A model generated the notes under the pieces. That model saw only the letters and a list, made by a program, of their open reading frames with translations. It was not told where the DNA came from and searched no databases. Both the position numbers and the translations under genes were made by a program. 64,000 bases of DNA, taken from assembly GCA_030648435.1 (NCBI GenBank), contig JAUSHE010000008.1, positions 3,449 through 67,448 on the forward strand. Reading direction: 5' to 3'. This document shows, in pieces, positions 2,161-14,124 of this stretch (its first letter is position 1; each line of letters starts with the position of its first letter). The DNA is from Candidatus Daviesbacteria bacterium (GTDB lineage Bacteria; Patescibacteriota; Microgenomatia; Daviesbacterales; UBA10151).

Positions 2161-2766
2161 TCAATTGCAGTCCCCCCAAAGGCCCCGTTTAAACTGTTTT
2201 GCTTCATTCTCTGCCTGTCTTAACTGCTCATTATATTTAACATCAGGAGGATAAGTTAAAACTCTGGCAAACCCTTCTCTGACCAGATAATCATTCACAA
2301 AAAGTATCTGACCGTCAGGAAGAGGCAGGAAAATTAAGCGCAACAGCCGGTCGTATTTATCTTTATCAGATATATCTTTCTGCAAAATAATCTCTTTATT
2401 GGTCAATAATGATTTTACCTCGTTTGAGGCTTCCTTTCCAAAACAGCCAACCGGACGGCGCGGGTCAACAGTTTCAGGAGTATCTATCCCTATAAAACGC
2501 ACTGATAAATTTCCCTGCACTTCAATTGTATCTCCGTCTACAACTTTTGTAACCAAAACCCGTTCACCTGCTAAACCAACTACAGCAGAAGTTGTGGCAA
2601 TCGGAGATGACTGATATTGTATTTGCGGATCCGACTTCAGCCCAAACCACAACAGGGAAAAACCCGTGATGATAATTAAAAAACCGGCTGTAACTAATAA
2701 TTTAGTATTAGACCACATTCTAATTTGCAAAATTTTGAGTAAACATCTTACCGTAAACCCCACCAT
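2161..2766 (-). CDS. Membrane-anchored thermonuclease (staphylococcal nuclease / SNase homolog)
   Basis: N-terminal TM helix. VVDGDTIEVQ...RFIGIDTPET...YDRLL...GLW are SNase-fold signature segments. Confidence 0.75.
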   Translation of the reverse strand: MVGFTVRCLLKILQIRMWSNTKLLVTAGFLIIITGFSLLWFGLKSDPQIQYQSSPIATTSAVVGLAGERVLVTKVVDGDTIEVQGNLSVRFIGIDTPETVDPRRPVGCFGKEASNEVKSLLTNKEIILQKDISDKDKYDRLLRLIFLPLPDGQILFVNDYLVREGFARVLTYPPDVKYNEQLRQAENEAKQFKRGLWGDCN

Positions 2767-3682
2767 CCATCACGCCTATCCCAACTTTTGCATAATCAGT
2801 TGAAAGTATATTTGCCCTGTGGCCTTCAGAGTTCATCAAACCCCGCTCAGCTAACTCTACACTGGGGGTATATGCCAAATTTTCACCTATCACCAAAAAG
2901 TCAATTCCTACCCTCAAAGCCCTGTCAGCTACAGTTTGATTTTCAGGTGAATAATGGGAAAAATAGCCTCTTTCAAACATATCCTTACTATGAGCCCTGG
3001 CAATACCCCGGAGCTTCGTATCAAAAACCAGCACCTTAAATCCCCTGCCAATCCTTTCCTTATTCACCATCTCCAGCATTTTGTCTTCCGAAGCGCTATC
3101 TACCAATAGTTGATTAGTTTGGAAACCCAGGTTGACTTTTTCATCTGTTTTGGGTTCTATAGTCAGGAAGGTTAAGGAATCATTAGCTACCCCTCCAAAA
3201 ACCTGCTTAACCGGAGATTCCAATCCATATGCAATTTTTAATATTTGGCTACCAATCCTGGAATCCAAAACATTTTTTTTAATAGTGGGCTGAATAGGGA
3301 AAGTTGCTACCATCACTAAAATTAAGGCAATAAAAACCAAACTCCGGAGAAGTGCCGGCACTAGAGCTAAAACTTTTGATCCCAGAATCCTAAATCTTGG
3401 GATCCTTGGCAGGATAAGCCTAACCAGAAAATAAAAAGCGGTTTCAGTTACAAACCAAACAGTCATAAAACCTAAAACCAAAGTTAAACCGTGCGGAATA
3501 TGAAACTGGCTTTCAAAGAATTTGGCAGGAAAATTGTAGTAGCTAAAAGATAGTAGGCCTGCTAAAAGGAAGCTCAAAAAATCAACAAGTTCCAGGATAA
3601 ATGACCTAGCTAACGATTCAATGACAAAAAGCAAAAGTACTCCTATAATGACAAGGTCTACCCAGTTTAGGCCGAAAAGCAT
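2720..3682 (-). CDS. CvpA-like membrane domain fused to a CAP/SCP (PR-1-like, YkwD-type) domain protein; start trimmed to Met41
   Basis: The ORF-track N-terminus (MSRLGIEPRTKRLKVSCSTAELPALG) is the antisense translation of tRNA-Lys. The plausible start is MLFGLNWVDLVIIG (CvpA-like TM helices). C-terminal GHRANIL...YAKVGIGV is CAP-domain-like. Confidence 0.55.
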   Translation of the reverse strand: MLFGLNWVDLVIIGVLLLFVIESLARSFILELVDFLSFLLAGLLSFSYYNFPAKFFESQFHIPHGLTLVLGFMTVWFVTETAFYFLVRLILPRIPRFRILGSKVLALVPALLRSLVFIALILVMVATFPIQPTIKKNVLDSRIGSQILKIAYGLESPVKQVFGGVANDSLTFLTIEPKTDEKVNLGFQTNQLLVDSASEDKMLEMVNKERIGRGFKVLVFDTKLRGIARAHSKDMFERGYFSHYSPENQTVADRALRVGIDFLVIGENLAYTPSVELAERGLMNSEGHRANILSTDYAKVGIGVMDGGVYGKMFTQNFAN

Positions 3683-3729
3683 AGATAAATCATAGCAAAT
3701 CCAGCTTAAATTTAGTACAATACATCCGA

Positions 3730-3802
<73 letters not shown>

Positions 3803-3926
3803 CCAATGATATCTGTGTTTTTAGAGGCTATTAGCCTCGAAAAATTGTTAAAAACTCCTCAAAAATAATCCTATAACCTAGAACCCCAACGAGATTCGAA
3901 CTCTTGATTAGCTTATCATATCAACA

Positions 3927-4091
3927 TTATTTGTTTTCCAAATCCATCTCGTCAATATCCTTATCCCAATCTCCTCCGTAAAAATGCTGCATTAATCCAC
4001 AACATAATTCATAAACAAACACCTGTATTTTCTTCAAATCTTCATCAGATAAATCAGGATAGTATTTTCTTATAGTATCTAAGGGTAACAT
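3927..4091 (-). CDS. Small ORF (54 aa), paralog of 7434..7526, strong SD
   Basis: AGGAGGTGATGATTGAAG-ATG. Product MLPLDTIRKYYPDLSDEDLKK... The first 21 aa are near-identical to the second copy, with a ~70% identical ~100-bp DNA repeat. Confidence 0.4.
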   Translation of the reverse strand: MLPLDTIRKYYPDLSDEDLKKIQVFVYELCCGLMQHFYGGDWDKDIDEMDLENK

Positions 4092-4354
4092 CTTCAATCA
4101 TCACCTCCTATTCACAACAGGAATAATTCTATAAGGTAAGTCAATGATTAGTTGAAAAAAAGGAAGTAAAAAAACTTCAACAGCTTTTTGAAAAATTAGG
4201 CGTTAGAGAAGAGGAATGGAAAGATGCAACCAAAAACATCGCGGGCAGTTTTCTTGTCCCGAGCGAACCGACATAGTATCTTGATTTTTCAAAATATGGA
4301 TAATACTTACACCATGTTAAACCGTTAGAGATGCTTAATGCCCTGTTCATTTCC

Positions 4355-5140
4355 CTAGCTCCTTGTTCTTTTCGCTTCTCTTGTTCGAGCAAGAGTATCT
4401 GCCTTTTGGAATCTTTCTGTTTGCATAACTCCATCTTTTATTTTTTGGTTCTCTTTCATCAGATTTGAATGCTTTTCTGCAAAGTCTGGCATAACTTCAA
4501 TGCTTTTATAACTTTGGCTTACTTCATACCATAAACCCATAATTGCAAGAGTTGTGTTGGCCAACTGCCATAGAGCTGCTTTTTCCATGTAGTCATCTTC
4601 AAAGTCGAAGTACGATACTTGAATCTGAGCACCTTCTTTTGAAGACAGAAACTTATATCCTCTGTTAGTGTCAACTAGGTTTGAATGACTGGAAACCTGC
4701 ACAGGTTCCTTTATCTTCAGTATTGCCTTAGATGTAGCTGGGTAATTTTTACTTAACCATTTGTATCTCTTACTTTTGAGTTTTATTGTGGAGTCCATGA
4801 TCCCAAACTCGTCTGTTTTTGCAAACTTCTCCACATCAGGGAATGCAATAGAATAAGCGGCATCTGTTCCAGATTCAATTAACTGTCTTAAGTTGAGTGA
4901 TGATTGTGCGTGGTGAAGGCGTATTATAGAAAATAAAGTAAGTAGATAAAAATTGCGGACAGAATAATAGAATCTTAAAAATATATCTTGTGGAGCCTTG
5001 AATTCGGTAAAAAAGCTTTCGAGCAATTGGAAAACCATCAAGTTATGAGCAAAATTTCCTCCATATTTGTTAAGTGCATTTAATGTTTTGTTATGTTCGC
5101 CTTCTATAATCTCAGTTAAGGTTCCGCTATGTTTTTTCAT
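4355..5140 (-). CDS. Hypothetical protein (261 aa), last gene of a 4-gene island operon
   Basis: Long ORF contiguous with the upstream gene (5140/5141). No recognisable motif. Its 3' end overlaps an 85-aa ORF in another frame (4177..4434). Confidence 0.5.
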   Translation of the reverse strand: MKKHSGTLTEIIEGEHNKTLNALNKYGGNFAHNLMVFQLLESFFTEFKAPQDIFLRFYYSVRNFYLLTLFSIIRLHHAQSSLNLRQLIESGTDAAYSIAFPDVEKFAKTDEFGIMDSTIKLKSKRYKWLSKNYPATSKAILKIKEPVQVSSHSNLVDTNRGYKFLSSKEGAQIQVSYFDFEDDYMEKAALWQLANTTLAIMGLWYEVSQSYKSIEVMPDFAEKHSNLMKENQKIKDGVMQTERFQKADTLARTREAKRTRS

Positions 5141-5962
5141 TTATTTCACTTTTTTAATTTCCACTAAAAACTCAGCATATTCATCATAACCTTCGAGAAA
5201 TAGATCTAACTGTTCCTGATTCAATATTCTCTTGTTTACATAAGGCTTCTTTACAAGAGGGATGACGGAAGTGACTTCATAAATAGCATCCATATAATCT
5301 TCTAATTCCTTTTTCGAAAGTACTTTTTCTGTAGTGGGTTTAATCACCTTTTCATAAAAAATATCATCCAATTCATTTATTATTTTAACTCCGATATCTA
5401 AAACGTTATTTATACTTGCTTCACTCGGGATGTCTCCGTGTACAACTCGGTTAAGTATTGAGGTTATTTCTAAGATCATATTCCGTACACGATTGTCTAT
5501 AACTCCAGTTGCAGCAAGTGTTTGTACCATTGTTCTCATGCTATGGGGATTTTTCTCTTCCGAGAAAGTAAAAAGTCTTTTAAGCCTAACTTCTATCTCG
5601 ATCCTTAGTTTCGCAAATGCTAAAACACCATCTCTTTCTGCAAGTTCGTGTAATTCATTAGCCAAAGTATCTGCTCTTTTTGAAGGTTTTTGATCAGAAT
5701 AGGCCTTCTCAGCTTTTTCTTTAAGCTCTTTTATACTTTTCTCTAGCTCAACTTCAAGATCGCCCCATTTTATTTTTTTAATCTGTGAAGCAAATGGTGT
5801 TAAAAGAACTAACACCATCAAAAGTATTGTTGTGTTGTCTATCAATACAAAAGATGCTTTAAATAAATGCAAAAATAAAATTAATGCGTTGAAGCAAAAA
5901 ATAACAGCAATTATTTTACCGCTCGTAATAGTATTTTCTAGCCAGTCTCTTAATTTTTTCAT
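5141..5962 (-). CDS. Hypothetical membrane protein (two N-terminal TM helices plus a charged/coiled cytoplasmic domain)
   Basis: Hydrophobic N-terminus IIAVIFCFNALILFLHLF...ILLMVLVLLTPF followed by KELKEKAEKAYSD. Operon member. Confidence 0.5.
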   Translation of the reverse strand: MKKLRDWLENTITSGKIIAVIFCFNALILFLHLFKASFVLIDNTTILLMVLVLLTPFASQIKKIKWGDLEVELEKSIKELKEKAEKAYSDQKPSKRADTLANELHELAERDGVLAFAKLRIEIEVRLKRLFTFSEEKNPHSMRTMVQTLAATGVIDNRVRNMILEITSILNRVVHGDIPSEASINNVLDIGVKIINELDDIFYEKVIKPTTEKVLSKKELEDYMDAIYEVTSVIPLVKKPYVNKRILNQEQLDLFLEGYDEYAEFLVEIKKVK

Positions 5963-5970
5963 TTTAGTTA

Positions 5971-6168
5971 TTATCTTTCCAATCTTTGACTCCTTTCGAT
6001 ATTTGGTCTACTTGGCATAAAAAGGTAGTAATATTGAGTGAAGTTTGGTTCAGGTTTGGGTTTGTTTAGCAAAGTATCTGCTATTTCTTCCGACATTAGA
6101 CCGTAGAATCCATAAGCTAACTGTTCTATTCTTTTTAATTCTGATTTTGATCTTGATAATTTATCCAT
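5971..6168 (-). CDS. Hypothetical small protein (65 aa)
   Basis: Tightly spaced (8-9 bp) between flanking same-strand genes. No motif. Confidence 0.35.
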   Translation of the reverse strand: MDKLSRSKSELKRIEQLAYGFYGLMSEEIADTLLNKPKPEPNFTQYYYLFMPSRPNIERSQRLER

Positions 6169-6177
6169 TGTCTAAAA

Positions 6178-6975
6178 TTAAAATATTAGTCTGTTGAATT
6201 GACTAAAATCACCCCAAAGAGAACATTTAAATTGAGTACCGTCAGAGATAAAAATATTCCTTTCTTTAAGTTTATCCTTAAAGAAGAAGTCGCTGAAAGT
6301 AAAAAAATCCAATACATTTTTAAGAATCATCTTTGTTTCTTTTTCGATTGTTTCGGGCTTAACCCAATTTTCCTTAACATCTCTCATTGCGAATATTTTA
6401 TCTTTTCGCATCTTAAAGCCTGCTTCAGTTACAGCTTTCACCGATACAACATGAGGAGTTTGTAAATGGTGAATAAAACTATGACGATCTGTATTTAGAA
6501 CTTCATACCAAGCCTTTTCTGTCTTTACTGATTTATACTTTTTTGTTAAACCATCGTGAATTTTATGCTTATTAAACCATCCACTTAAATCGTTAAAGAC
6601 GGGGCTTCGGTTTTTTTGGAAGGGTTCTTCGGATAGACCATAAAATAAAGGTACAAGAGTTGTAAATGAATCAAGCATAATCTGAGAGTAGATAATCAGA
6701 CTTTCCCAATCTAGATGAAGATTCATAAAAAGGCCATCCCCAGGTTTAGTTAAACGGTAAGAAATCGTTGATAAATAACCTAAGCAGGCTGAAATTCTTC
6801 CACTTGCGTCCTTGTGCTTTTGTTCAATAGGTAATTTAGATTCAGGAGTAATAATACTTATTCTTGAAAGAGCAAGGCGTCTATCTGCTAATTCTGTAAA
6901 TAAACCTGATATTGGTACTGCAATACCACTATCCGAATGGGGCAATAGTAATAAGTGCTTATATTTCTTTGCCAT
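6178..6975 (-). CDS. Hypothetical protein (265 aa), first gene of the island operon
   Basis: Long ORF. No recognisable motif. Confidence 0.5.
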   Translation of the reverse strand: MAKKYKHLLLLPHSDSGIAVPISGLFTELADRRLALSRISIITPESKLPIEQKHKDASGRISACLGYLSTISYRLTKPGDGLFMNLHLDWESLIIYSQIMLDSFTTLVPLFYGLSEEPFQKNRSPVFNDLSGWFNKHKIHDGLTKKYKSVKTEKAWYEVLNTDRHSFIHHLQTPHVVSVKAVTEAGFKMRKDKIFAMRDVKENWVKPETIEKETKMILKNVLDFFTFSDFFFKDKLKERNIFISDGTQFKCSLWGDFSQFNRLIF

Positions 6976-7034
6976 TTTTCCCCTCCATAATTGTTATTTC
7001 TTCCGGCGTGAGGCCGTAGAGTTTATAAATCATC

Positions 7035-7232
7035 TTATACCCCTGTAATTAGCCTAATAATATCTTCTCTCCGATATCGCCTTTCTCCGACCCCACGCTT
7101 ATTACCAATCCTAATAGCTTTTAATTTTCCGTTATTATCCCACCTTCTTAGTGTTGTAGGAACAACTCCTAGTATTTTGGCTACTTGGTTAATATTTAGA
7201 AGTCTTGGTAATCTTACCTTATTTTCTGCCAT
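7035..7232 (-). CDS. Excisionase/AlpA-family helix-turn-helix DNA-binding protein
   Basis: LNINQVAKILGVVPTTLRRWDNNGKLKAIRIG matches the Xis/MerR-type HTH_17 pattern (l..e.A..lgvs..T..rw...G.l.a.r.g). Confidence 0.65.
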   Translation of the reverse strand: MAENKVRLPRLLNINQVAKILGVVPTTLRRWDNNGKLKAIRIGNKRGVGERRYRREDIIRLITGV

Positions 7233-7433
7233 CTTAATTAAAAATAGTTATTGTACTTTATTATACAGAAAAAACCCGTATGTAACTATAATTAAAAAGA
7301 GGTAAACAATAAGGAAAAGTGGTTTAGTTTTTTATCGCAGGAGTTTTTGAGGCTAATTCTGGTTGTAACCACCAAATTAAATCTGGTAAAATATCCATAG
7401 ACAGAAAAGCTTCGCAGAAATTGCGAAGTCTGT

Positions 7434-7526
7434 TTAAGACACTAGGCGGATCACTGAATGGGATTTTTCCAAATCCTCGTCTGATAAATTAGGATAATAT
7501 TTCCTAATCACATCCAAGGGCAACAT
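7434..7526 (-). CDS. Small ORF (30 aa), truncated paralog of 3927..4091
   Basis: Same SD (AGGAGGTGATGATTTGAT-ATG). MLPLDVIRKYYPNLSDEDLEK then diverges to an early stop. Confidence 0.3.
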   Translation of the reverse strand: MLPLDVIRKYYPNLSDEDLEKSHSVIRLVS

Positions 7527-7596
7527 ATCAAATCATCACCTCCTAAGAATTGGTAACAAGAGTAACTGCAGAAGCTCAGAGGTTGTAGGATAATTT

Positions 7597-8394
7597 TTAG
7601 AGGACTACTGTAGTTTTTTCGTAAAGCATCGGCAAACAATCTTGTCGCATCCTAAATTTTGTTCCATGATTATGGCCGGTACGAGCGTCAAAATCGACAA
7701 GAATTTTTCCTTCCTCAAGGGCTTTCAAAAACCCATCAAAACTGAATTTTTGAAGCATCATAACTTTAGAATATTTGTAATACTCCTTCTTCCTTACTGT
7801 TTTTACTTCTGCCTGAACGTAAAAAGTATTTAATAGTTTTGTCCCTGCCTTATGTTCTAAATCATCAAAACCCCAATATGGTTGAGGACTAAGTTCGCCT
7901 ATCCCAACTCTTTTCTTAACTGTTTCTAACCATGCCTTGTGACGTATATCAACACTCCCTGCATCGAATGAAATTAAAATTTTCCGTTCTTTGCGGTCAA
8001 TTACCACCATAAAACCTCGATCGCTTCTTGATTGTCCGTGAATTGTTTGCCTAAAACTCATTTCCCCGAGTGTATATTTTTTACCATCTTCCTGATGGGA
8101 CCAACCGTATTTTGGCAAAAGCATTTGTGGTACAAATCGAATAGCCCGCGGAGAAGGTTCGATATGAAAAAGGGTTGTTAATGAAGATGAGTTAAGCCGT
8201 TGAGCTTTTAGTTCCCATTCAGCAGCATTAGGAATTGGTAAATTGTTTTCTTTGATGCCGAGTAAATCTTCTAATGTGTTCCCTATACCACCAGAGTTGC
8301 CTCGTCTAGCGTTCGGAACCCAGCCCATAGCAATAATTTCTTTGAGTTTATCAATTAATGCTTGTTTTGAATAAATAATCGGTTTATCTGCCAT
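7597..8394 (-). CDS. Type II restriction endonuclease, MvaI/BcnI-like (tentative)
   Basis: Adjacent to and co-oriented with the MTase. The N-terminus GWVPNARRGNSGGIGNTLEDLLGIKENNLPIPNAAEWELK resembles what I recall of the MvaI/BcnI family N-terminal region. The family call is from memory only. Confidence 0.5.
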   Translation of the reverse strand: MADKPIIYSKQALIDKLKEIIAMGWVPNARRGNSGGIGNTLEDLLGIKENNLPIPNAAEWELKAQRLNSSSLTTLFHIEPSPRAIRFVPQMLLPKYGWSHQEDGKKYTLGEMSFRQTIHGQSRSDRGFMVVIDRKERKILISFDAGSVDIRHKAWLETVKKRVGIGELSPQPYWGFDDLEHKAGTKLLNTFYVQAEVKTVRKKEYYKYSKVMMLQKFSFDGFLKALEEGKILVDFDARTGHNHGTKFRMRQDCLPMLYEKTTVVL

Positions 8395-8400
8395 TGCTGT

Positions 8401-9153
8401 TTATAAAAAACTTATTTGAGACTGGTGTATTCTAATTCTTTCTTGGGCCATTTCGCAATATTCAGGGGAAATATCTATCCCAATATAATTTCGTTTGAAG
8501 TTTAAAACGGATATTGCAGTTGTGCCGGAGCCCATGAAAGGATCGAGGATAATTTTTGCATCTGTTGACGATATAATTCGATCAATTAATTTAACAGGAA
8601 AAGCAGCAGGGTGCTCATTTTTCATCTCTTGTGTAAATTCCCAGACATCCCCATAAGCATTTGCTTTTGGTGCTAGTTTAAACTTTGGTTTGGCTATAAG
8701 ATAAATAACCTCGTAGGTGGGCAAGAAATAACCTGCATTGAAATTAAGACCTCCTTTTCTTTTCCAAATAATAATTTGCCTGACAGGAAATCCGCTAACT
8801 ATATCTTGGCGATCTTGTAATAAGCCATCTTGAACGCGCCATTTATGATTATAGAAAATTGCGCCATCTTCTGGAATTATTCTCATCATTTCACTCAAAC
8901 ATTCTTTTTGCCATTTAACATATTTATCATGGGGCATACAGTCGTCATGATGTGAATATCCATTTTGGAGTGCTGCATTTGCCCATTTCCCACCACGACC
9001 ATCTTTCATTCCATTACCAGTAGAATTTTTCAGATTATACGGGGGGGAGGTTATCACCAAATCAGCTGCACTATCAGGGATTTGCTTCATAACCTCCAAT
9101 GCATCACCACAAATAATTTTATTTACAAAACTGTCTGGAAATTTTAGACTCAT
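8401..9153 (-). CDS. DNA methyltransferase, beta-class (N4-cytosine or N6-adenine), R-M partner
   Basis: Motif IV LVITSPPY precedes motif I ILDPFMGSGTTAI (beta-class permutation). ParB-free DNA_methylase_N4/N6 fold. Confidence 0.85.
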   Translation of the reverse strand: MSLKFPDSFVNKIICGDALEVMKQIPDSAADLVITSPPYNLKNSTGNGMKDGRGGKWANAALQNGYSHHDDCMPHDKYVKWQKECLSEMMRIIPEDGAIFYNHKWRVQDGLLQDRQDIVSGFPVRQIIIWKRKGGLNFNAGYFLPTYEVIYLIAKPKFKLAPKANAYGDVWEFTQEMKNEHPAAFPVKLIDRIISSTDAKIILDPFMGSGTTAISVLNFKRNYIGIDISPEYCEMAQERIRIHQSQISFL

Positions 9154-9224
9154 CGCTCAAATTATAGCAGTTTTTCTAAACCATTTGTCGGTACAAATAG
9201 GATTTGATGTTGTATAATCTATCA

Positions 9225-9516
9225 CCGAGATTCTTGTGCCTGCCCGCCTCTGGAGGGGTGAAAGTATCCTTCGACTCGCTACGCTCGCTCAGGACTTAGC
9301 CTTACTGTTAGGGAGCCCTTCGACTCCGCTCAGGCCTTCGGCTCTGAGACCGCTCAGGCTCGAAGAGGTAAACTTATGTAGTGATTCATCTTGGCCATTA
9401 GGGTCGATTTAGTGGTTGCATTTTGTCATTATTTTTGATAATATAATGTTGTATTTCCAAAAGAAATACATTTGATTTGCTAATTCCCCCCGGCTCAACT
9501 CGACCCGGGGGTTTTT
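9225..9516 (+). ncRNA. Candidate structured ncRNA (GC-rich, repeated CGCTCAGG / CCTTCGACTC motifs) ending in an intrinsic terminator
   Basis: GC-rich stretch in an AT-rich genome with no ORF. TATAAT at 9213-9218 upstream. Terminates in a hairpin plus T-run at 9484-9516. No match to tmRNA, RNase P or SRP motifs by eye. Confidence 0.25.
9484..9516 (+). terminator. Rho-independent terminator (CCCCCGG-11 nt loop-CCGGGGG + TTTTT)
   Basis: 7-bp GC stem directly followed by a T5 run on the + strand. Confidence 0.6.
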
Positions 9517-9778
9517 CTTGCTTAAAATCCTTAGATCACAAGAAAGCAGGGTATAAAGATAAAACTTGGTTATCTTCTTAAGTCGTGCCCTTCAGAAAAA
9601 TTGCTCATCCTGCGTGATTTTAAATAAGGACCAAATCCTACTGATAGGCAAACTCTGAGTTTAGACCGTCCTGAAGGAGTAATTCAGGGAATTCCCGCAG
9701 ACCTGCCTGCCGGCAGGCAGGTCTGTTTGAGGGGTTCTATAGAATATAAAATCAGATTCCAGTATAATCAGAGGGTTT

Positions 9779-9852
9779 GACGCCATCGTCTAGTGGCCTA
9801 GGACACAGGGTTTTCATCCCTGTAACCGCGGGTTCGACTCCCGCTGGCGTCA
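9779..9852 (+). tRNA. tRNA-Glu (anticodon TTC)
   Basis: Acceptor GACGCCA/TGGCGTC, anticodon stem CAGGG/CCCTG with loop TTTTCAT, T-arm CGGGTTCGACTCCCG. No encoded CCA. Confidence 0.85.
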
Positions 9853-9982
9853 CAAAACAAAAAATATCCCTTATCCTAACCTATTATTTTTGAGTAATTT
9901 TTGTCTGAAGAATACATTTGCTTCATCTTGCGCTTGAAGTAATTTATCCTGATAAATGAAAGGTTAGGATCTTCAGTCTTTC

Positions 9983-10687
9983 TTAAGGTGCAAGTCTGTT
10001 TAAGATTCTGCCAAGCAGGGAATCAGTGCTTTCAACTACCTGACCGTTTTCAGCTGATACAACAGCCTCAACTTTTGTTTTAATTAGGATAAATCTTAAT
10101 AATTTATGGGTTTTAGTACCCTTAACTTTATAAACCAAAACCCCGTTTCTAGTCTCCAACTTTACCAGATCCGGAATGCTTCCTAAACTATTATTAACTT
10201 TCTCACCCGCTACATCATCCATTACATGAGATGAAAGCATATTATCAATTGCTTTTTGAGGTAAAACAGCCACCACTTTAGATCCTGAAGGAGTAGTGAC
10301 AGTTATTTGCCTGGTGGTGGGGTCAACTGAGATGGGGAAATTTGACAAAGCCCCAACTCTTTTGTTTACCAAGGCTATCTGACCCGGGGCTGTAGCTATT
10401 TTAACATCTTCTTTCTCCAGTTCTGCTTCTACTTCTTTAACCGCCTCATTTTCACCCTGCTTAACTTTAGTTTCTATTTTTACGGGCTTAGGAGTTGATT
10501 GAACAACAGATGATTTTCCATCATTGTAATTTCTGCTAACAGGTATTATTGAAGAAAAAACTAAAAAGCCCCCGATGCCAACTATTAAAACAGCCAGAAA
10601 GTGGGCAAAACCTTTATCTTGATTTGAATTAGGCATTAATTTCAGTTTACATAAAAACAGATTCCTTGTCAACTTTGCACTTGACAA
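9983..10687 (-). CDS. Hypothetical membrane-anchored protein
   Basis: N-terminal TM helix (FLAVLIVGIGGFLVFSSIIP). Start may be the internal Met18. Confidence 0.45.
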   Translation of the reverse strand: MSSAKLTRNLFLCKLKLMPNSNQDKGFAHFLAVLIVGIGGFLVFSSIIPVSRNYNDGKSSVVQSTPKPVKIETKVKQGENEAVKEVEAELEKEDVKIATAPGQIALVNKRVGALSNFPISVDPTTRQITVTTPSGSKVVAVLPQKAIDNMLSSHVMDDVAGEKVNNSLGSIPDLVKLETRNGVLVYKVKGTKTHKLLRFILIKTKVEAVVSAENGQVVESTDSLLGRILNRLAP

Positions 10688-10717
10688 GATCTTCTTAGCA
10701 CCATAAAATGTCGGTGT

Positions 10718-11074
10718 ATGTTTCGACGCCGACCAGAAATGGATGTTATCATTCCTGATAATCCTGAAATTTTAGGAGCTCCAAATTTGGATTTACCTGA
10801 AACGCCAATTGCTTCGAGAAAAAGATTCCTCGCTCAGCTAGGTTCAATTGCAATCATGCCCTTTCACAATCAAGCATTTCAGGGACCCAACTTGTTTTAT
10901 GGTGACAGTACTAGTGGTGCTGGTGTCGGTTTTTTCTTAGGAGCAATTCTAGGAGGAACAACAGAATCCATGCTCCATTTGGCAGGTAAACCCTGTAATG
11001 TGATATCTTCGGGAGGTAGGACATTATTGCTTGGAGTTGTCGGAGCCATTATAGGTTCTCATTTCTTGAATTAA
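10718..11074 (+). CDS. Hypothetical Gly-rich small protein
   Basis: ORF only. No motif. Confidence 0.3.
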   Translation: MFRRRPEMDVIIPDNPEILGAPNLDLPETPIASRKRFLAQLGSIAIMPFHNQAFQGPNLFYGDSTSGAGVGFFLGAILGGTTESMLHLAGKPCNVISSGGRTLLLGVVGAIIGSHFLN

Positions 11075-11202
11075 CAAACCCCTTTTCAGAAGAATTAAAT
11101 AACGGCATTCTCTAAAGATGATCTACGGTTTAATGAGTTGCAACGCGCTATAAGTAGATAAATTATCAGTTATCTACTCCCTAATGGTATAATGTCCCTA
11201 CA

Positions 11203-13398
11203 ATGAGTAACCCCCTTAGCGTCCGTGATTTTTTGTTTAAGAATCTTACTTCTTATGACGGCGGCCCGGAATTCCTGCAGAGTCCAACCGATCGGACCCA
11301 AAAACTTTGGGATATCTGCAAAATCTTAATTAAAAAAGAATTTGATAACGGGGGCGTTTTGGATATCGATACCAAGACCATTTCTACAATTACCAGCCAC
11401 CAGCCGGGCTATATAGAGAAAGATTTGGAACTGATTTTTGGTTTACAAACAGATGGGCCCCTAAAACGGGCCATTAAACCTTTTGGCGGTATTAAAGTGG
11501 TGGAGCGGGCCTGCGAGGATTACGGGAAAAAGCTGGATCCAGTGGTAATAGACCTTTTTACCAAATATTTAAAAAGCCACAACCAGGGGATTTTTGACGC
11601 CTATACAGATGAAATCAGGAAATACCGTTCTTCCGGCGTGATCACCGGACTGCCTGATAATTATGCCCGGGGCAGGATTATCGGAGATTACCGCCGGGCT
11701 GCGCTGTTTGGGATAGACAGGATTATTGAAGAAAAGCAAAAAGACCTCCAGGGCAAGGGAGGAGAAATGAGTGATGAGGAAATCCGGGACAGGGAAGAGA
11801 TTAAAGAAGAAATTCAAGCCTTAAATTTGATCAAAGAAATGGCCTTTTCGTATGGCTTTGATATTTCAAAACCGGCCACAAATGCCAAAGAGGCAATCCA
11901 GTGGACATATTTTGCGTATCTTTCTGCTTTGAAAGAACAGGACGGCGCGGCGATGAGTTTGGGGTCTGTTTCCGGATTTTTTGATATTTATCTTAAGAAA
12001 GATATTGCCGATGGGAAACTGGACGAAAAGCAAGCCCAGGAACTGGTTGATCAGTTTATTATCAAATTAAGGATGGTCCGGCAACTGCGGATGAAGGAAT
12101 ACGATACCATTTATGCCGGTGATCCAACCTGGCTGACAGAAAGTTTGGCCGGGATGTTTTTGGACGGAAGACACAAAGTGACTAAAACTTCCTACCGGTT
12201 TTTACAATCTTTATATAATCTGGGACCGGCCCCTGAACCAAACCTCACCGTGCTGTGGTCTGAAAAATTACCCAAAAAGTTTAAGGAATTTTGCGCCAAA
12301 GTATCAATTGAAACTTCTGCTATCCAATATGAAAATGATGACCTGATGCGGGAGACCGCTGACTGGGACGATTACGCCATCAGCTGTTGTGTTTCCCAGC
12401 TCAAAAACGGTTCCCAAATGCAATACTTTGGGGCTAGAAGCAATCTGGCCAAAATTTTGCTTTTGGCATTAAATTCAGGCAAGGATGAAAATACCGGCGT
12501 TGAATTGGTTCCCGGGATAGAAGCCCAAAATGATGGCGTTTTAAATTATGACAACGTTATTGCTGAGTACAAAAAAACCTTGGCTTACGTTGCGACCGTT
12601 TATGTTAAGGCCATGAATATTATTCATTACATGCATGACAAATATTATTTTGAACGGGTGGAAATGGCTTTACTTGACAGCAAACTTGATCGGTTAATGG
12701 CTTTTGGTATTGCGGGCTTGTCGGTTGTAGCCGATTCCTTTTCAGCCATAAAATATGCCAAAGTTACTCCAATAAGAGACGTTAACGGAATTACAAAAGA
12801 ATTCAAGGCCGTGGGGGATTTTCCGAAATATGGCAATGACAATGACCTGGCTGATGATATTGCCCGGGAATTGGTCAAAAGCTTCCATGAAGAACTCAAA
12901 AAACATCATATTTACCGTAATGCCACGCCTACTTTATCGGTTCTGACAATAACTTCAAATGTAATGTACGGCAAAAAGACAGGCGCCACTCCTGACGGAA
13001 GATTATCAGGTGCGCCTTTTGCCCCGGGAGCTAATCCGATGCACGGCAGGGATGTTCGTGGTGCAATTGCATCATTAAATTCCGTTGCTAAGCTAAATTA
13101 TGAAGATGCCAGAGACGGGATTTCCAATACTTTCTCGATAGTTCCAAAGGCTTTGGGAAACAATGAGGAAGCACAGATTGAAAATCTGGTCAATTTGATT
13201 GACGGATATTTCCTAAAACAAGCCCAGCACTTAAATGTTAACGTTTTAAATAAAGAAACTCTGCTTAAAGCGATGGCGCATCCGGAAGATTACCCCCAGT
13301 TAACGATTAGGGTGTCAGGCTATGCGGTCAATTTCGTAAAGTTATCCCGTGAGCACCAACAGGAAGTATTAGCGCGGTCATTTTTTGACTCAATGTAA
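11203..13398 (+). CDS. pflB: Pyruvate formate-lyase (formate C-acetyltransferase, glycyl-radical enzyme)
   Basis: N-terminal PFL segments ([65 protein letters not shown]) and C-terminal glycine-radical motif RVSGYAV. Confidence 0.9.
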
Positions 13399-13401
13399 AT
13401 T

Positions 13402-14124
13402 TTAAGATAAAAGGGCGCCGCCGTCGACCACAATTTGCGAACCTGTCATATAAGATGACATCTCCGAAGCCAGGAAAAGCGCCACTTTGCCAATTTCATC
13501 TGGTTCACCCATCCTGTGCATAGGAATTTTATTCATAAAAGCTTCCATGATTTTGGGATCAATTTTTCCAGCCCCCTCTTGTGCCTTCACTACCCCCGGT
13601 GTGACAATACCGCCCGGCGCAATGGCGTTGACCCAAATCTTGTGTTGGGCCAGCTCCAGCGCGGTATTTTTGGTAAATCCCCACACACCATGCTTGGAAG
13701 CATCATAGGCCGAGAGACCGATCATTGAAGGGTGCAAGGCATCTATTGAGGAAATATTGATAATTTTTCCGCCCCGCCCCTGCTTTATCATTTGTTCAGA
13801 GACATATTTCGTGGTTAAAAACACCCCCTCCAGATTCACTTTAATCACTTTTTCAAAATCCTCCAAAGTCATCAGGGAAAGCGGCACATTCGGATAAATG
13901 CCGGCATTGTTGACCAAAATATCTATTGAGCCGTATTTTTCAACCGTCTCTGCAACAAGTTTTTTAACGTCCTCTTCTTTGGAAACATTACAACCAGTGG
14001 CCAAATCGGCAATTACAACATTAGCGCCTGCCTCCTGAAAACGTTTGACTATCCCCGCCCCAATCCCTACAGATCCACCGGTAACTATTGCTGCTTTTCC
14101 TGAAAGATCCAGAAGACCGCGCAT
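13402..14124 (-). CDS. Short-chain dehydrogenase/reductase (SDR)
   Basis: TGGSVGIGAGI cofactor motif. NNAG and YDASK (YxxxK) catalytic motifs. Confidence 0.8.
   Translation of the reverse strand: MRGLLDLSGKAAIVTGGSVGIGAGIVKRFQEAGANVVIADLATGCNVSKEEDVKKLVAETVEKYGSIDILVNNAGIYPNVPLSLMTLEDFEKVIKVNLEGVFLTTKYVSEQMIKQGRGGKIINISSIDALHPSMIGLSAYDASKHGVWGFTKNTALELAQHKIWVNAIAPGGIVTPGVVKAQEGAGKIDPKIMEAFMNKIPMHRMGEPDEIGKVALFLASEMSSYMTGSQIVVDGGALLS

Follow-up and report, generated by a model that had tools for sequence, protein, structure and literature searches.

The 64-kb window examined here, to the whole of which all coordinates refer, belongs to a metagenome-assembled genome of Candidatus Daviesbacteria (Patescibacteria, or Candidate Phyla Radiation (CPR)) and contains a 6-kb islet running from tRNA-Lys (UUU; 3730-3803, plus strand) to tRNA-Glu (UUC; 9779-9853, plus strand). 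The two tRNA genes form the edges of a slot, and tRNA-Lys, called by ARAGORN and matched by the Rfam tRNA model at 70 bits, has its 3' end directed towards the islet, the guanine-plus-cytosine (GC) content of which is 31-37% versus 39-45% in the flanks. Beyond tRNA-Lys lie, all on the minus strand, a micro-open reading frame (micro-ORF 1), four ORFs termed D, C, B and A in that order, a gene for a small helix-turn-helix (HTH) protein, a second micro-ORF and an intact Type II restriction-modification (R-M) pair; in the positions and strand of these ORFs, the presence of tRNA-Lys and the R-M pair alongside, the original prediction for this region was accurate. It had also assumed a defence-island setting, and this is borne out by the comparison with related loci (labelled L001 to L086, those of the slot having been fetched via the conserved flanking CvpA/CAP gene), in which the tRNA-Lys slot is short, different or filled by AbiL. 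The data support the region being a defence islet in a variable tRNA-adjacent slot. The window proteins A to D gave no significant matches to Pfam, PADLOC, PHROGs or NCBIfam, and an Rfam scan of the islet returned the two tRNAs and nothing else.

The R-M pair consists of a full-length MvaI/BcnI-family Type II restriction endonuclease of 265 amino acids (7597-8394, minus strand; PF15515 with an E-value (E) of 8.9e-67 over positions 1-227 of the 227 of the model; PADLOC REase_II, E 1.4e-81) and its cognate N6_N4 DNA methyltransferase of 250 amino acids (8401-9153, minus strand; PF01555, E 8.5e-41 over positions 2-221 of 221; PADLOC MTase_II, E 9.6e-121). The two genes are co-oriented with 6 nucleotides (nt) between them, as expected of a Type II R-M system of the MvaI/BcnI type. 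A terminator-like hairpin at 7410-7428, kept in L024, separates the R-M unit from that of the HTH_17 protein, a small DNA-binding protein of MerR/BldC/excisionase-like type (7035-7232, minus strand; HTH_17, E 1.6e-11), and lies with the presumed HTH promoter in the upstream region of that gene (7233-7454, minus strand). At 90% identity the HTH clusters with members bearing names from Daviesbacteria, Nomurabacteria and Levybacteria (36 members in all), one of which occurs on 57 contigs. It is an unusually conserved and probably mobile small regulator, and probably the one that heads the transcription unit of A, C and D. A MADS system marked by the HTH was considered, as PADLOC mad1 matched it at E 1e-13, and was rejected: the NCBIfam MADS1 score was 14.1 bits against a cutoff of 80, and the PADLOC scan found no further MAD proteins in the window.

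Relatives retrieved through the conserved flank show how variable the slot is. L025 has tRNA-Glu and tRNA-Lys at a distance of 0.47 kb; in L023 the distance is 1.7 kb, and the interval contains a HAD-type hydrolase gene and one of no assigned function; in L022 unrelated genes adjoin tRNA-Lys. The most informative comparison is with L024, whose core flank is about 69% identical to that of the window and in which a full-length micro-ORF adjoins tRNA-Lys. Its HTH shares 98% amino acid identity with that of the window (17 synonymous and 3 nonsynonymous changes), and nucleotide identity is 89% over 7041-7454, which takes in the HTH gene and its 220-nt upstream region. Between this HTH and the micro-ORF, L024 carries an AAA_21 ATPase, an RloB-like protein and a membrane protein; directly behind the HTH, at L024 1091-2868, these include a complete AbiL system (AbiLi, the AAA_21 ATPase, 8e-74; AbiLii, the RloB-like protein, 2e-13). 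Since HTH, micro-ORF and tRNA-Lys recur in both loci, they can be read as one frame that holds AbiL there and A-B-C-D here. Defence islands and hot spots adjacent to tRNA genes, with interchangeable cargo, are a general concept, which the islet resembles in that its frame contains AbiL in L024 and A, C and D in the window, the slot of other relatives being small or occupied by genes without an evident defence role.

Protein A (265 amino acids; 6178-6975, minus strand) belongs to a small family that is associated with R-M genes. It has 24 relatives among 1.84 billion (1.84e9) representatives, with 11 close homologues, seemingly confined to Patescibacteria-type metagenome sequences, and scans of viral contigs for A, C and D returned no relatives. 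In five of its six contexts, the window counted, A stands beside R-M genes. Type III operons in L011 and L076 have the order HTH_17, A, N6_N4 Mod-type methylase and ResIII with overlapping start and stop codons, the HTHs ahead of A there being 53-54% identical to that of the window; a 40%-identical A in L077 adjoins an MvaI_BcnI endonuclease and a LexA-methylase fusion; and in L009 A follows HEPN_AbiU2 within a Type I R-M island. In the window itself the MvaI/BcnI pair lies upstream of A, and the tail remnant of an Eco57I-type methylase abuts its start. Across 21 divergent sequences the invariant residues of A, start methionine aside, are E91 and R164, while H169 is invariant in the 11 close homologues and largely conserved at +5/+6 from R164 in distant members, being replaced in some. 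A thus has an R-x4-6-H motif preceded by a conserved acidic residue, a HEPN-like feature. In a comparison by hhalign with an AbiU2 protein the R...H motifs coincide, at a probability of 0.16%, which is non-significant.

It is conceivable, if rather unlikely, that A is a non-nuclease R-M accessory, such as a regulator that times restriction, an immunity factor or an anti-restriction factor, and that its R-x4/5-H is coincidental. The two Type III operons with overlapping genes in which A stands between the HTH and Mod would suit such a role, as would the lack of detectable homology to HEPN families and the poor structural model. However, R164 and E91 are invariant and the histidine largely conserved across very divergent members, and A also occurs after a HEPN_AbiU2 gene and, in L010, with no R-M gene nearby, so that it is not tied to one R-M type. 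As a separate observation, the HTH-A-Mod-Res operon of L076 (in the region 2800-13800) adjoins TraG-like P-loop, TraC-like, PrgI and type IV secretion system pilin genes, which suggests a conjugative element carrying this R-M variant, on a contig taken as patescibacterial from the taxonomy of the A family.

Protein C (273 amino acids; 5141-5962, minus strand) has, as predicted, two transmembrane (TM) segments, recognised by hydropathy within residues ~11-64. Its order is two N-terminal TM helices, a conserved IKKIKxGDFEAE box, a charged linker, a DUF4145-type domain and a conserved C-terminal domain, and the alignment of its family contains a near-invariant N171-R172-x-x-H175-G176 motif. Four of its 59 homologues carry a precomputed PF13643 annotation, and DUF4145 is matched by 16 of 33 family members, with a best E of 1.6e-6; a full-length Vibrio homologue (34% identity, E 7e-41) scores 25.1 against the gathering cutoff of 23.1. 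By transitive homology C may be placed in DUF4145 (PF13643, HEPN clan). Protein D (261 amino acids; 4355-5140, minus strand), the partner of C, is all-alpha and yielded a usable AlphaFold 2 (AF2) model, with a predicted local distance difference test (pLDDT) score of 77 and a predicted template modelling (pTM) score of 0.79. The model shows the four-helix up-down core of HEPN proteins, with AF0298 as the top match, and the predicted fold of D is HEPN-like. The earlier statement that these proteins lack recognisable motifs does not hold for C, with its probable DUF4145 domain, or for D, with this fold. The invariant residues of D include no R-x4-6-H spacing; Foldseek searches of the model against PDB and BFVD gave non-significant helical bundles resembling G-protein-coupled receptors only, and the one recurring weak Pfam signal, DUF7403, came from 6 of 15 members and stayed below cutoff. 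Comparisons by hhalign of D with C, A and Abi_alpha, and of A with C, were all non-significant.

The contexts of C and D differ from those of A. The two genes abut in L004-6, L016/17, L018-21 (recurring in L080/81) and L078, all without A, and the pair is kept in five of six distinct C-family contexts, window included. C occurs alone in L012-15, beside HigB/HigA-like and Schlafen/AlbA_2 genes. D occurs alone in L002, L079/82 and L086, standing in L079/82 beside an insertion sequence (IS) transposase and two small divergent genes that may be toxin-antitoxin (TA)-like, and in a prophage-like region of L007/8 it comes immediately after an OLD/GajA/AriA-like ATPase gene. C and D loci often adjoin tRNA genes (tRNA-Gly, tRNA-Leu, tRNA-Lys). 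Across lineages D is 80-88% identical and C just 58-78%, a disparity that points to horizontal movement and re-assortment. On plasmids, the Vibrio owensii pVOWZ1 homologue of C (34%) lies next to an Abi_alpha gene between resolvases, and a Caulobacter pCB4 homologue of D (23% identity) lies next to AbiEii. Taken together, the neighbourhoods of A, C and D in other loci consist mostly of R-M, Abi (abortive-infection), TA, IS and plasmid genes; of the neighbourhood expected earlier, the defence and mobile surroundings were recovered for A, C and D, and co-inheritance of A-B-C-D was not.

In L007 (4490-7291) the ATPase has 653 amino acids and is followed by the D homologue, with a serine recombinase and a GP3_package gene in the region; ATPase and D may form a distinct two-gene defence system. 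In L083 (1480-2844) an AadA-like nucleotidyltransferase (NTP_transf_2 and AadA_C) abuts a D homologue with zero spacing, an arrangement that recalls pairs of minimal nucleotidyltransferase (MNT) and HEPN protein. In the Collierbacteria locus L018 (8001-11323; also L080/L081) C-D precedes two further overlapping genes, giving a four-gene variant, the additional products being an unassigned protein of 308 amino acids and one of 274 amino acids with a weak match to pP_pnuc_1 (pPIWI-associated nuclease).

An alternate scenario, which is considered distinctly unlikely, is that C-D, and possibly HTH-A, serve as TA or addiction modules for the maintenance of the islet or of a plasmid rather than as effectors triggered by phage. 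The C and D genes abut as a tight pair, and HEPN domains are common among TA toxins (PMC3710099). Homologues are found on plasmids beside HicAB, ParA and AbiE genes, and the abutting nucleotidyltransferase and D genes of L083 are like MNT-HEPN pairs. However, D and C each occur alone, which would be unusual for an obligate pair, and the window contains neither an MNT, such as would adjoin the HEPN gene in a HEPN-MNT system, nor any known antitoxin domain. TA and Abi roles are, moreover, not mutually exclusive.

It has also to be considered whether the islet is an integrative element at tRNA-Lys, with the HTH as excisionase and the repeats around the micro-ORFs as attL and attR; this is judged improbable. 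The tRNA-adjacent position, the low GC content and the absence from relatives are in keeping with such an element, as are the weak similarity of the HTH_17 protein to the excisionase family, the 82-nt imperfect repeat that flanks HTH-A-B-C-D, and the location of C-D elsewhere, by tRNA-Leu together with a micro-ORF in L078 and by tRNA-Gly in other loci. However, no integrase or recombinase was found among the proteins encoded between the two tRNAs, and the 3' end of tRNA-Lys is present as a single copy in the 64 kb, with 3 mismatches allowed, and forms no att-type repeat. Of the properties of a tRNA-targeting genomic island, absence from relatives and deviating composition were observed, and 3'-end duplication and an integrase were not; in this the islet differs from the tRNA-adjacent islands and hot spots referred to above. 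The repeats, 79% identical and in one case chimeric, point to deletion or illegitimate recombination rather than to att sites. The proposed Xis-like role of the HTH was not supported, in view of both the missing integrase and the score with the excisionase model TIGR01764 (24.7 bits versus a cutoff of 28.8). In L024 the same HTH stands ahead of other cargo, and in further loci an HTH leads HTH-A-Mod-Res operons, as would suit a regulator.

Several segments of the islet appear to be debris. B (65 codons; 5971-6168, minus strand) has no Shine-Dalgarno (SD) sequence, forms a singleton cluster and matches no family; homologues were not found save for a truncated copy in L078, and the B peptide was unmatched in plasmids. 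Over 4226-6100 the window and L078 share 97.5% identity, and in L078 the B region is truncated at another 5' position. Identity to L078 is 92.3% for B DNA and 91.5% for the non-coding flank, versus 98.9% for C and 98.0% for D, and the codon changes in B are 8 nonsynonymous and 1 synonymous. As it evolves like non-coding DNA and lacks an SD, relatives and a family, B most likely represents the non-functional 3' end of an upstream gene that has been lost. The interval from A to C is in that case 215 nt; the spacing of 0-9 bp claimed for the whole block stands for the A-B-C-D ORFs and fails between HTH and A, where the gap is 59 nt. This latter interval contains a 24-codon ORF ('MIYKLYGLTPEEITIMEGK...', the 'YKLYGLT' ORF; 6959-7033, minus strand), a remnant of the C-terminal tail of an R-M methylase of Eco57I/TaqI_C type, the end of which supplies the SD of A. 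This remnant at the start of A suggests that a Type IIG-like R-M gene once preceded A. The 'LAYGFYGLMSEEIA' segment of B forms a 37-nt repeat with 6992-7028, with 29 of 37 matches against a maximum of 28 in 30 shuffles. Searched by itself, the 24-amino-acid peptide of the window gave one weak match (E 8), to a DNA methyltransferase.

A similar tail was noted in L009 (12971-13030), where, within a large defence island, an orphan 'IDEEVYKLYGLTSEEVEIVKGNY' methylase tail has a small unrelated gene on either side; its DNA matches the window remnant over 31 nt at 90%. All 11 R-M-annotated plasmid matches of the L009 tail peptide, each weak singly, are C-termini of Eco57I/N-6/TaqI_C methylases, the other plasmid matches being one hypothetical protein and six under no listed gene. 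This suggests that methylase tails persist repeatedly at recombination junctions. Integron-like attC sites were considered for these segments and set aside, as the tail remnants read as methylase C-termini and no inverted-repeat structure was seen.

The micro-ORFs present a comparable picture. Micro-ORF 1 (56 amino acids, with a strong SD; 3927-4097, minus strand) is 86% identical to its orthologue in L024, with equal length and stop, an intact frame and 10 synonymous and 8 nonsynonymous changes; in L078 a paralogue of 54 amino acids, 55% identical, stands after C-D and adjoins tRNA-Leu. To judge from this conservation, micro-ORF 1 is probably a real small gene. The direct repeats that were said to bracket the block are real and carry the SD and the micro-ORF start, although they extend over 82 nt and not over ~100-180 nt: copy 1 (4029-4110) holds the SD and the first ~23 codons of micro-ORF 1, and copy 2 (7464-7545) is 79% identical to it (65 of 82 matches versus 43-46 in 30 dinucleotide shuffles). 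Micro-ORF 2 (30 codons; 7434-7526, minus strand) is not the functional paralogous bracket that had been envisaged, the upstream copy being a chimeric recombination scar in which the 5' 23 micro-ORF codons are fused to the last ~8 codons of a gene homologous to the 133-amino-acid one that precedes the HTH in L024. Homology to micro-ORF 1 stops at ~7459-7464 and homology to the 133-amino-acid gene, which takes in the stop codon and terminator, starts at ~7454-7458; as read from these alignments, the junction is a deletion junction. That the junctions fall at conserved ends of genes, namely methylase tail remnants and the 5' end of the micro-ORF, suggests that short conserved segments served as sites of recombination.

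DNA homology to other loci likewise halts at gene boundaries, at 6177-6975 for A and 4350-5962 for C-D. A was not found together with C or D outside the window in any context compared, its occurrences in L009-11, L076 and L077 being without C-D. With separate contexts for A and C-D, and with B behaving as non-coding DNA, A-B-C-D is not one unit, and the single co-inherited four-gene operon of the original prediction dissolves into a separate A, a remnant and the retained pair C-D. It is accordingly very improbable that A-B-C-D and the HTH make up a single, previously undescribed defence system of four or five genes. In its favour, all of them lie in one orientation and at close spacing after a single HTH and promoter region, and B-C-D occur together in L001 and L078 as near-identical copies, but the contexts compared already contradict the proposal, as every other A locus lacks C and D, B is a singleton that evolves like non-coding DNA, and other loci have the C-D pair without A, D alone or after an ATPase gene, and C alone. 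Still more remote is a housekeeping role of C-D in the cell envelope, for which C being a membrane protein and the pair lying within a glycosyltransferase, PMT_2 and LytR cluster in L004-6/L016 could be adduced, but against which stand the tRNA-Gly adjoining C-D there, as it adjoins D in L079/L082 with quite different neighbours, the patchy distribution, the D/C identity disparity, the occurrence of the pair at three different tRNAs, the C homologue by Abi_alpha on a Vibrio plasmid and the probable DUF4145 domain of C.

These observations allow the construction of a model, held here with moderate confidence, in which the 6-kb stretch is a mosaic defence islet that arose via successive insertion, replacement and deletion of independent modules. 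The first module would be the intact MvaI/BcnI-type Type II R-M pair with its own terminator; the second, the HTH_17-led transcription unit with A, a companion of several R-M types; and the third, C-D, a membrane-anchored DUF4145/HEPN protein with a partner of HEPN fold. B, the 'YKLYGLT' ORF and micro-ORF 2 would make up a fourth component, the debris of earlier arrangements. Most likely, the R-M pair would act as a first line against incoming DNA, and A and C-D as second-line effectors of abortive-infection type that attack RNA via HEPN-type sites once infection proceeds, with the HTH controlling transcription of A and C-D. By analogy with PrrC-EcoprrI, the catalogued R-M-linked HEPN clades (PMC3710099) and RAZR (PMC13017515), A and C-D are most likely abortive-infection RNases or regulators thereof; the conjectural part of the model comprises the cleavage of RNA, phage as the trigger and control by the HTH.

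A number of findings weigh against this mosaic of HEPN-type effectors, or at least against parts of it. A is predicted all-alpha, but its AF2 model, from an 11-sequence alignment, is poor (pLDDT 47); Pfam was matched by none of the family members scanned (11 close, 10 distant), the family profile retrieved nothing from PDB, and hhalign of A against the AbiU2 protein, C and D gave probabilities below 1%, so that the motif is the sole feature by which A might be assigned to HEPN. In L010 A is followed by an unassigned 308-amino-acid protein and an R-M gene is absent nearby. The window C itself has no match to DUF4145 at E<=1, and it is without the arginine at -8 from the histidine that is used by RAZR, a DUF4145 RNase. 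C-D stands among cell-envelope glycosylation genes in L004-6 and L016, though next to tRNA-Gly. No PADLOC model matches A, B, C or D, and the contexts covered number six for A and about a dozen for C/D.

The kind of system to which the mosaic islet would belong, namely HEPN proteins accompanying R-M in a tRNA-adjacent hot spot, is already established. HEPN proteins tied to R-M systems as a second line of defence have been described for at least 16 clades (Anantharaman et al. 2013, PMC3710099), and a "multi-pronged defence", with HEPN genes in or beside R-M operons, has PrrC-EcoprrI as its tested paradigm (PMC3710099). An AbiU2-linked HEPN family and DUF4145, a HEPN-clan domain, have been catalogued in R-M operons (PMC3710099). 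A resembles these systems in its location in or by Type I, II and III R-M loci and a Type IIG remnant, and in its R-x4/5-H motif after an invariant acidic residue. However, it differs from PrrC and RloC in having no ABC-ATPase domain (no ATPase domain was found in A, C or D), and from described HEPN families in the lack of sequence or profile similarity or a confident fold. For C the nearest comparison is RAZR (PD-T7-4), an abortive-infection protein that combines a zinc finger with a DUF4145 HEPN RNase, becomes active on assembling on phage ring proteins and uses the catalytic residues R146 and H154, the arginine standing at -8 from the histidine (PMC13017515). C would share with RAZR a DUF4145-type domain, as placed by transitive homology, and it has a conserved histidine, here within N-x-x-x-H-G. 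In contrast to RAZR, it has two TM helices and a charged linker in place of a zinc finger, a further conserved domain at the C terminus and a dedicated partner, D here and Abi_alpha in Vibrio, and it lacks the catalytic arginine at that position. D is comparable to AbiV and the AF0298-like HEPN-T proteins, which are HEPN folds without the canonical R-x4-6-H (PMC3710099), a motif that D also lacks; however, it has no significant match to HEPN_AbiV or any other Pfam HEPN model and is about twice the minimal HEPN size. The families of A and D are not yet catalogued, and C would represent a new DUF4145 architecture.

A bolder joint proposal, tentative and on balance unlikely, sees in A an undescribed guard coupled to R-M systems and in the slot a site of integrase-less cassette exchange. 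If this were true, A would be a largely CPR-confined, ATPase-less minimal analogue of PrrC that fires when restriction is inhibited and that accompanies at least four R-M types, and cargo would be swapped by recombination at methylase 'YGLTxEEI' tails and the micro-ORF 5' end. The genomes of CPR bacteria are tiny, and defence-system catalogues cover their immune repertoire poorly, PADLOC missing A, C and D. The islet yields as candidates the A family, which tracks R-M systems, the membrane-anchored C with its partner D, and D alone as a mobile protein of HEPN fold, and the slot in which AbiL and A/C-D replace one another offers a small natural example of the exchange of defence cargo. The themes of HEPN proteins with R-M, DUF4145 RNases and defence hot spots are extended by these data, none of them being newly opened.

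Further features were noted at the margins of the islet. A perfect 28-bp palindrome (CAGACCTGCCTGCC/GGCAGGCAGGTCTG) at 9698-9725, 54 nt upstream of tRNA-Glu, has an 18-nt core that is also present in the CPR loci L010, L026, L035 (twice) and L078, the copy in the last being flanked by the micro-ORF and tRNA-Leu; the palindrome may be either a terminator or a dispersed hairpin element. A GC-rich stretch with degenerate repeats of a CGCTCAGG-type motif, situated at 9230-9370 in the interval from the methyltransferase to tRNA-Glu, yields a spurious ORF of 58 amino acids rich in Leu, Arg and Ser, and looks like a small repeat element. On the other side of the islet, a 360-amino-acid ORF (2720-3802) overlaps tRNA-Lys; judging by its orthologues, the true start of the CvpA/CAP-domain gene is probably at 3682 (MLFGLNWV...).

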